64,000 bases of DNA from Escherichia coli 042 (GTDB taxonomy: Bacteria > Pseudomonadota > Gammaproteobacteria > Enterobacterales > Enterobacteriaceae), in assembly GCF_000027125.1 (NCBI RefSeq), contig NC_017626.1, one strand, 5' to 3'. The translations under genes were made by a program, and so were the position numbers. The notes under the pieces are model-generated. The model did no database searches, was not told where the DNA came from, and worked only from the letters and a program-made list of their open reading frames with translations. Of this stretch, positions 27,547 to 27,705 are shown piece after piece. The number at the start of each line of letters is the position of its first letter. Position 1 is the first letter of the stretch.

Positions 27547-27705
27547 CCATCCTGTATTTGGTTAAATTGCGAGCGAGATCGCGTCTTCGATTGACTGCAA
27601 TTTAACCAATTAAATTCTAAAATAATCACGAAAAAAATTTTACTTCCGCATCATGCGATGTATGTGGGAATTGCCCAGGCGGCGGGGGATAGGGGCTGCA
27701 GACAG

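Follow-up and report, generated by a model that had tools for sequence, protein, structure and literature searches.

The window analysed here is a 64-kb stretch of DNA from Escherichia coli 042, and the part of it considered below is the 578-nt spacer between bioD, the last gene of the bio operon, and uvrB, which starts at 28125. This region matches strain 118UI at 100% identity, and its positions are converted to those of K-12 MG1655 by adding 785,401. The spacer contains DARS1, which has been located between bioD and uvrB (PMC4187155, PMC6015884, PMC11724364) and overlaps uvrBp3 (PMC4187155, PMC6015884). The features, in window coordinates, are:

27544..27546, plus strand: stop codon TAG of bioD, from the list of open reading frames and the annotation of identical or near-identical genomes
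27547-27557: gap of 11 nt from the bioD stop to arm 1, with all 11/11 columns variable among Escherichia
27555..27556, plus strand: outer base pairs TA, pairing with 27611-27612 across a 1x1 mismatch (repeat finder, MFE structures and pair counts)
27558..27570, plus strand: arm 1, TTGGTTAAATTGC, invariant within E. coli except for the loop-proximal base
27568..27583, no strand assigned: degenerate CRP-type palindrome TGCGA-GCGAGA-TCGCG, sharing its first 3 nt with the end of arm 1 and continuing through the 5' half of the loop
27571..27596, plus strand: spacer or loop of 26 nt, GAGCGAGATCGCGTCTTCGATTGACT (sequence read and repeat finder)
27597..27609, plus strand: arm 2, GCAATTTAACCAA, remodelled only in Escherichia from a block whose sequence in the other genera is (C)GTTAGCTGATAAA
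27610..27660, plus strand: A/U-rich, G-poor tail 3' of the hairpin (A21 C9 G5 T16), with no U tract and a G-rich stretch next
27611..27612, plus strand: partners of the outer pairs (repeat finder, MFE structures and pair counts)
27706..27728, no strand assigned: inverted DnaA boxes I (TTATCCACT) and II (TTATCCACA, minus) of the DARS1 core, invariant in 17 genera

The arms are complementary at 13/13 positions, both by direct reading of the sequence and with a repeat finder, and the complementarity extends to 16 nt at 94% when the outer pairs are included (27555-27570 with 27597-27612). The repeat starts 12 nt past the bioD stop on the coding strand, the centres of its arms are 39 bp apart, and 4 of its 13 stem pairs are G-C. 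An earlier reading made from the sequence alone had described a perfect, AT-rich 13-bp inverted repeat with a 26-bp spacer just downstream of bioD, and this description proved accurate in each particular (27558-27609). The sequence-only reading overlooked the setting, in which the DARS1 core and uvrBp3 follow about 96 bp downstream of the repeat. The DnaA boxes (27706-27714 and 27720-27728) overlap uvrBp3, and DARS1, a functional element with DnaA boxes I-III, is reported to measure 101 bp and to need no protein activator (PMC11724364); with the boxes at 27706-27728 and the repeat ending at 27609, the repeat thus falls outside functional DARS1. Within the loop, conservation is seen in the 5' half, where 5/13 columns vary among Escherichia, whereas the 3' half (27584-27596) is highly variable, with 10/13. 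The repeat is identical in K-12, and neither the K-12 nor the PGAP records annotate it.

Rarity and distribution of the repeat

No other perfect inverted repeat with arms of at least 13 nt and a spacer of at most 60 nt is present in the window. First-order Markov simulations gave 0.05 such repeats per window, with 2 of 100 simulations containing any, which scales to a chance expectation of about 3-4 per 4.6-Mb genome. Hence, the repeat taken alone is mildly surprising rather than decisive, and it stands above chance by virtue of its conservation. The next-longest perfect inverted repeats in the window are at 21745-21781 and 58052-58086; one of them has 11-bp arms (TTAGCGCAAGG..CCTTGCGCTAA) around a 15-nt spacer, and the other (AAGTGATAAT..ATTATCACTT) has a Fur-box-like look.

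Of 5426 complete E. coli genomes searched with a 71-nt or 58-nt query around the repeat, 5424 contain it at exactly one site, and 72% of the E. coli genomes are identical across the 58 nt. In the species-representative collection it is kept in six other Escherichia lineages, including E. albertii and E. whittamii, and across 11 Escherichia sequences 96.4% of the pair cells still pair on the plus strand. In contrast, it was found in no non-Escherichia genus of the Enterobacteriaceae examined: the best 13-nt complementarity at the homologous site in these genera is 6-10/13, which is at background beside a shuffled mean of about 7.7, and complementarity of at least 11/13 around this site is seen in Escherichia only. 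The sequence-only reading had suggested a check of conservation across the Enterobacteriaceae and had named absence of conservation outside this strain as counting against it; this objection fails, since the repeat is conserved throughout E. coli and the genus Escherichia, though not in the other genera examined.

Within the window the 13-mer occurs as the two arms alone, even with 2 mismatches allowed. This agrees with the earlier judgement that the repeat is unlike REP elements, as does its single copy in E. coli, on account of which we also rejected a dispersed repeat family of any kind (REP/BIME, ERIC or MITE), the end of a mobile element and an att site. Matches in phages comprise one phage with a transduced bio locus and one phage record without annotation, and those in PLSDB are to large (55 kb-4.9 Mb), non-mobilizable E. 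coli records; both sets appear to represent transduced or chromosomal bio loci. In Escherichia phage DN1 (MF374379.1) the repeat is found at 28471-28539 within the transduced bio locus, as in a lambda-bio transducing phage.

Genomic setting and origin of the arms

When the 640-nt uvrB upstream regions of 17 genera were aligned, a block of about 570 nt proved homologous across the Enterobacteriaceae, with the repeat at its 5' edge. The inverted DnaA boxes fall in the invariant centre of this block, at about 27690-27800. The DARS1 core with its flank (GTTATCCACTATTCCTGTGGATAACCATGTGTATTAGAGTTAGAAAAC..., 27690-27810) is near-invariant in the 17 genera, to a degree comparable to the start of the uvrB coding region. 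In most genera bioD and uvrB are about 1400 nt apart, and a gene for an ABC-type ATPase (PF00005) is convergent with bioD, whose 3' end it overlaps, and has its own 5' end towards the conserved uvrB-upstream block. Two examples are:

L038, 3665-4438, minus strand: ATPase gene
L066, 3665-4594, minus strand: ATPase gene

This gene is missing from Escherichia, Salmonella, Kluyvera, some Citrobacter and Enterobacteriaceae bacterium 89, and Citrobacter sp. R56 retains a truncated remnant of it. As Escherichia has no ATPase gene, its bioD abuts the uvrB-upstream block, which begins 11 nt from the stop codon. Ordinary terminators, with a G+C-rich hairpin and U residues, follow bioD in Salmonella (GCAGGATC-AGAC-GATCCTGC then UGUUCU), in Enterobacteriaceae bacterium 89 (a GC stem then U5) and, in similar form, in Kluyvera; after the bioD of Escherichia the repeat is the only stable structure. 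It shares with these intrinsic terminators the position at the end of the operon and the nature of a hairpin, but, unlike them, it has no G+C-rich stem, short loop or U tract.

The comparison between genera also bears on how the arms arose. At the homologous place Leclercia matches arm 1 at 11/13, and arm 1 is largely ancestral sequence, while the Salmonella sequence ATTAGCCAA represents an intermediate form of arm 2. All Escherichia-specific differences of the arms from the outgroups are towards complementarity, implying that pairing was selected or that a templated quasi-palindrome mutation took place. The latter is known as the "perfection" of a quasi-palindrome by template switching, and, as here, it makes an imperfect ancestral repeat perfect through several changes towards complementarity; it accounts for the origin of a repeat, not for a function, and is beyond demonstration from present sequences. 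As a separate observation, an AT-rich block, GCTGATAAATATCAAAAAATAGCGATAATTTTTTTTTA, with a TGATA..TATCA palindrome is found at 27605-27645 and, in other genera, about -520 to -480 from uvrB; it is strongly conserved outside Escherichia and remodelled within the genus, where part of it became arm 2.

One explanation, on balance unlikely but with a substantial share of the probability, is that the repeat is a neutral by-product that itself does nothing. The ancestor of Escherichia would have had a quasi-palindrome, with an arm-1-like segment as in Leclercia and an arm-2-like segment as in Salmonella, complementary at ~9/13 positions, which was perfected by a template-switch mutation or by drift; its persistence would be due only to the youth of the genus and to other constraints on the segments in which the arms sit. 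The 3-4 such repeats expected per genome by chance are compatible with this account, as is the finding that each arm overlaps a segment that is conserved yet non-complementary in other genera, owing to which the conservation of the arms need not reflect pairing. The uniform direction of the Escherichia changes, all towards complementarity, speaks against it.

Folding, pairing and the 3' end of the bio transcript

On the plus strand a 77-nt segment with the repeat folds at -20.9 kcal/mol (z = -3.4), and the corresponding segments of other Escherichia species have z = -4.6, -2.2 and -4.7 despite divergent 3' halves of the loop. Citrobacter genomes in which bioD also abuts the block have z = +0.9 to -1.2, with no significant hairpin. 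MFE stems enclosing the site are present in Citrobacter, but they were rejected as structural conservation, given that they are no better than those of shuffled sequences and do not cleanly separate the lineages.

A closer comparison of the helix among Escherichia sequences showed that: 1) all one-sided changes (4/4 in the 11 Escherichia sequences) are G·U-compatible on the plus strand and would give A·C on the minus strand, a plus-strand bias with a rough binomial p of 0.01-0.1. 2) The E. coli strains MS20653 and APEC O18 have a C->T change in arm 1 at the loop-closing pair, which becomes U·G in the plus-strand RNA, and the related lineage Z1323HEC0300 combines the same change with an exactly compensating G->A in arm 2. 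3) The sampled variant haplotypes of E. coli depart from the arm sequences at the loop-closing pair alone, and the polymorphisms cluster at the borders of the arms and in the loop. 4) Among Escherichia 7/26 columns of the arms are variable versus 21/24 of the gap and the 3' half of the loop (Fisher p = 1.7e-5), but the arms show no extra conservation over the whole intergenic region (7/26 versus 186/552 variable columns, p = 0.53). 5) Covariation in the 11 sequences is not significant, as 259 of 500 shuffles reach the observed values and a single cell is compensatory. 6) Three substitutions, in E. whittamii, SCPM-O-B-8794 and MOD1-EC7003, break a pair.

These observations divide over the neutral alternative. 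Tolerance of the three pair-breaking substitutions, the non-significant covariation test and arms that are not better conserved than the intergenic average are all what a functionless repeat would show. It is less compatible with the contrast of the arms to their immediate flanks, with the bias of one-sided changes to plus-strand G·U, and with the exact compensatory change in a lineage that carried the wobble pair, which by our own estimate has a chance of ~1% per private mutation.

If the repeat acts as RNA, it could belong to the bio message or to a transcript of its own. No Rfam 15 family matched it at a permissive E-value, the best overlaps being with eukaryotic snoRNA and miRNA models at 13-20 bits and E > 1, and a gathering-level Rfam scan of eight related loci returned nothing in the bioD-uvrB region. 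A promoter scan detected no promoter of the repeat's own. We considered a sigma-70 promoter formed with TTGACT (27591-27596), and rejected it as there is no -10 element at 16-18 bp, the scan left it unflagged and the hexamer is not conserved elsewhere in the genus. The suggestion of the sequence-only reading that the repeat might be a small structured RNA is the less likely one, with no Rfam match, no RNA gene annotated in K-12 and no promoter; the position 12 nt past the stop codon together with the plus-strand substitution bias is better fitted by a hairpin at the 3' end of the mRNA than by an independent small RNA. In an E. albertii locus (L011) the Rfam family ES036 (CssrF), an sRNA, is matched 3' of uvrB at 6342-6383 on the minus strand, with 43 bits, above the gathering score.

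The simplest function for a hairpin in this place, that of a canonical intrinsic (Rho-independent) terminator of the bio operon, is very improbable. The hairpin does stand directly 3' of the operon's last gene, 5 of the next 9 bases are U, and E. whittamii and its relatives carry UUAAAUUUU. However, of the features of an intrinsic terminator the repeat displays the position alone, 3' of the last gene on the sense strand: its stem is AU-rich (4/13 G-C pairs), its loop has 26 nt, no U run abuts the stem, and a consensus scan left it unflagged. The tail 3' of the stem, UUAAAUUCUAAAAUA, has a T-score of 2.1, and the d'Aubenton-Carafa d-score is about -41. We therefore rejected this candidate, in accord with the earlier remark that the repeat is unlike terminator hairpins. 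The terminator scan found nothing else terminator-like between the repeat and DARS1; the inverted DnaA boxes themselves were also flagged as a terminator-like hairpin (27705-27729).

A second class of transcript ends offers a closer parallel. According to Dar & Sorek 2018 (PMC6061677), Rho-dependent E. coli transcripts end precisely, just 3' of stable stem-loops without U-rich tails, and these stem-loops shield the transcripts from PNPase and RNase II. Compared with those stem-loops by its sequence and fold, the repeat is similarly stable, on the sense strand, placed after the coding region, devoid of a U-rich tail and followed by an unstructured, A/U-rich and G-poor stretch; it differs in its unusually AU-rich stem, its large 26-nt loop and its weak rut-like character. 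The 50 nt downstream (27610-27660) are mildly richer in C than in G (C9 versus G5) and are followed by a G-rich stretch at 27661-27700 (G19 versus C7), and hence there is no obvious rut site. No entry for bioD occurs in the two Term-seq supplements searched, and a literature search found neither mapped 3' ends nor Rho dependence at this gene.

The anatomy of the repeat, its conservation pattern, the stability of its fold and its context are observed. Our tentative proposal, to which we give somewhat less than an even chance, is that the bioBFCD mRNA has its 3' end defined or protected by this repeat, acting in the 3' untranslated RNA as a stem-loop specific to Escherichia; formation of the RNA in vivo, the mapping of 3' ends to this place and a protective or insulating role are inferred. 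In a plus-strand transcript from the bio promoter, the arms would pair as an AU-rich helix of 13-16 bp that closes a partly structured loop of 26 nt, 12 nt past the bioD stop. Transcription would stop further downstream, through Rho or at the DnaA-box hairpin or a DnaA roadblock in DARS1, and 3'-to-5' exonucleases would then trim back to the hairpin, stabilising the bio mRNA and fixing its end before DARS1 and uvrBp3. The analogy envisaged is with Rho-terminated E. coli mRNAs, whose 3' ends at steady state are marked by stem-loops lacking a U tract. As for its history, bioD may have come to sit 11 nt from the block in the ancestor of Escherichia, after which a pre-existing quasi-palindrome may have been perfected into a hairpin built from ancestral arm 1 and changed arm 2. 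Were this hairpin reading right, Escherichia would offer a traceable origin of a non-canonical operon 3' end, arising after a deletion removed the old terminator, and the structure would stand directly before a replication-control element (DARS1) and an SOS promoter.

The CRP-type motif and the edge of DARS1

The spacer of the repeat holds a second palindromic element, with the degenerate CRP-type form given above. At the orthologous position, -553 to -561 from the uvrB ATG, other genera read TGTGA-N6-TC(A/T/G/C)CA, and 28 of 74 related loci have at most 2 mismatches to TGTGA-N6-TCACA, versus 25 of 1184 control windows (2%). One locus, from a Pluralibacter MAG (L048), has the perfect consensus, and L014, L032, L033, L036, L042 and L072 are among the others with the orthologous site. 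Across genera the half-sites are conserved and the N6 between them is variable, which is the signature of a DNA site bound by a dimer and not of an RNA stem. Escherichia and Citrobacter have in common the degenerate form TGCGA..TC(G/T)CG. The E. coli copy keeps the key G/C positions (TGCGA..TCGCG), with some E. coli lineages reading TGTGA, but its 7/10 matches (3 mismatches) are by themselves at background level. Where the ATPase gene is present, its start is about 200 bp downstream of the site. The spacer motif is much older than the Escherichia repeat, which wraps around it. Its likeness to CRP sites resides in the fixed position, at which 28 of the 74 loci have 0-2 mismatches; it is unlike them in that the E. 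coli copy is degenerate and the 13-bp arms fall outside any CRP site, and in E. coli it is a candidate site. We consider the conserved CRP-type motif upstream of DARS1 to be probably a more interesting lead than the repeat.

The sequence-only reading had also proposed a protein-binding palindrome. For the arms this finds no support, as they are genus-specific, 39 bp apart and without other copies; the spacer, however, does hold an older CRP-type palindrome, which that reading did not notice. Two other binding sites were considered. A PdhR/GntR-type box (ATTGGT..ACCAAT) was rejected, its half-sites being about 42 nt apart, not 3. The resemblance, through a shared ATTTGGTT, to the BirA operator bioO was set aside, since the half-sites are everted relative to bioO and the arms are genus-specific.

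A broader version of the protein-binding proposal is a module at the level of DNA, in which the spacer provides the CRP-type site and the arms offer additional contacts or bind a second factor. Its role would be to regulate uvrBp3 or DARS1, or else it would be a remnant of the promoter region of the lost divergent ABC-ATPase gene. We regard this as doubtful, with a modest probability. The fixed position of the motif in many genera, its conserved half-sites around a variable N6, the retention of its key G/C positions in E. coli and its location ~200 bp upstream of the ATPase start all fit such a module, and so does the requirement of the paralogous DARS2 for flanking IHF and Fis sites (PMC11724364). 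On the other hand, the arms are confined to one genus and exist in no further copy, with 39 bp between their centres; with 3/10 mismatches, the E. coli motif is at background level; the compensatory G->A in arm 2 would not obviously matter to CRP; a literature search found no paper linking CRP to uvrB, bioD or DARS1; and DARS1 is reported to need no protein activator (PMC11724364). In comparison with the DARS2 flank, both loci have a conserved non-coding segment beside a DARS core with inverted DnaA boxes, but, unlike DARS2, DARS1 is reported to be activator-free and the repeat is ~96 bp outside its core. No IHF or Fis consensus is evident by eye at the flank of the repeat.

Distinctly improbable, but of some consequence, is the proposal that DARS1 and uvrBp3 are bordered upstream by a control or insulator module that has so far gone unrecognised, made up of the repeat and the enclosed CRP-type site. 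In most Enterobacteriaceae a cAMP-CRP site at a fixed distance from the DARS1 core might make DnaA reactivation or uvrB expression responsive to carbon status, and in Escherichia this site might have been partly converted to a hairpin that shields DARS1 from biotin-regulated read-through. The primer homology arms used for ΔDARS1::cat end at window positions ~27558 and ~28002 (PMC4585315), so that the deletion removes 27559-28001, and with it the repeat, the CRP-type site, uvrBp3 and further DnaA and LexA boxes beyond the 101-bp DARS1. The "uvrBp3" reporter fragment (-567 to -280) contains the repeat as well. Because both the ΔDARS1::cat deletion and the uvrBp3 fragments include the repeat and the CRP-type site, effects credited to the DnaA boxes alone may be confounded; and, as the deletion takes out this flank, the phenotypes of ΔDARS1, including the defect in mouse colonisation, could partly stem from it if such a module exists. 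The DARS1 and uvrBp3 papers cited here do not mention the repeat, and that no function has been reported for a region inside such widely used constructs is a further point for a neutral repeat.

Two other features of the region downstream of DARS1 were noted. The segment 27901-27941 (CTTGACAAATGTTAAAAAAG...TTTGGGGATAACC), between uvrBp3 and uvrBp2, is very highly conserved across genera; it contains both a hexamer resembling a -35 element, TTGACA, and, on the minus strand, TTATCCCCA, which resembles a DnaA box. In E. coli ZH063 the match to the window ends at ~27892 and is followed by phage genes, with one for a terminase large subunit, which indicates a prophage inserted in the uvrB upstream region, downstream of DARS1.
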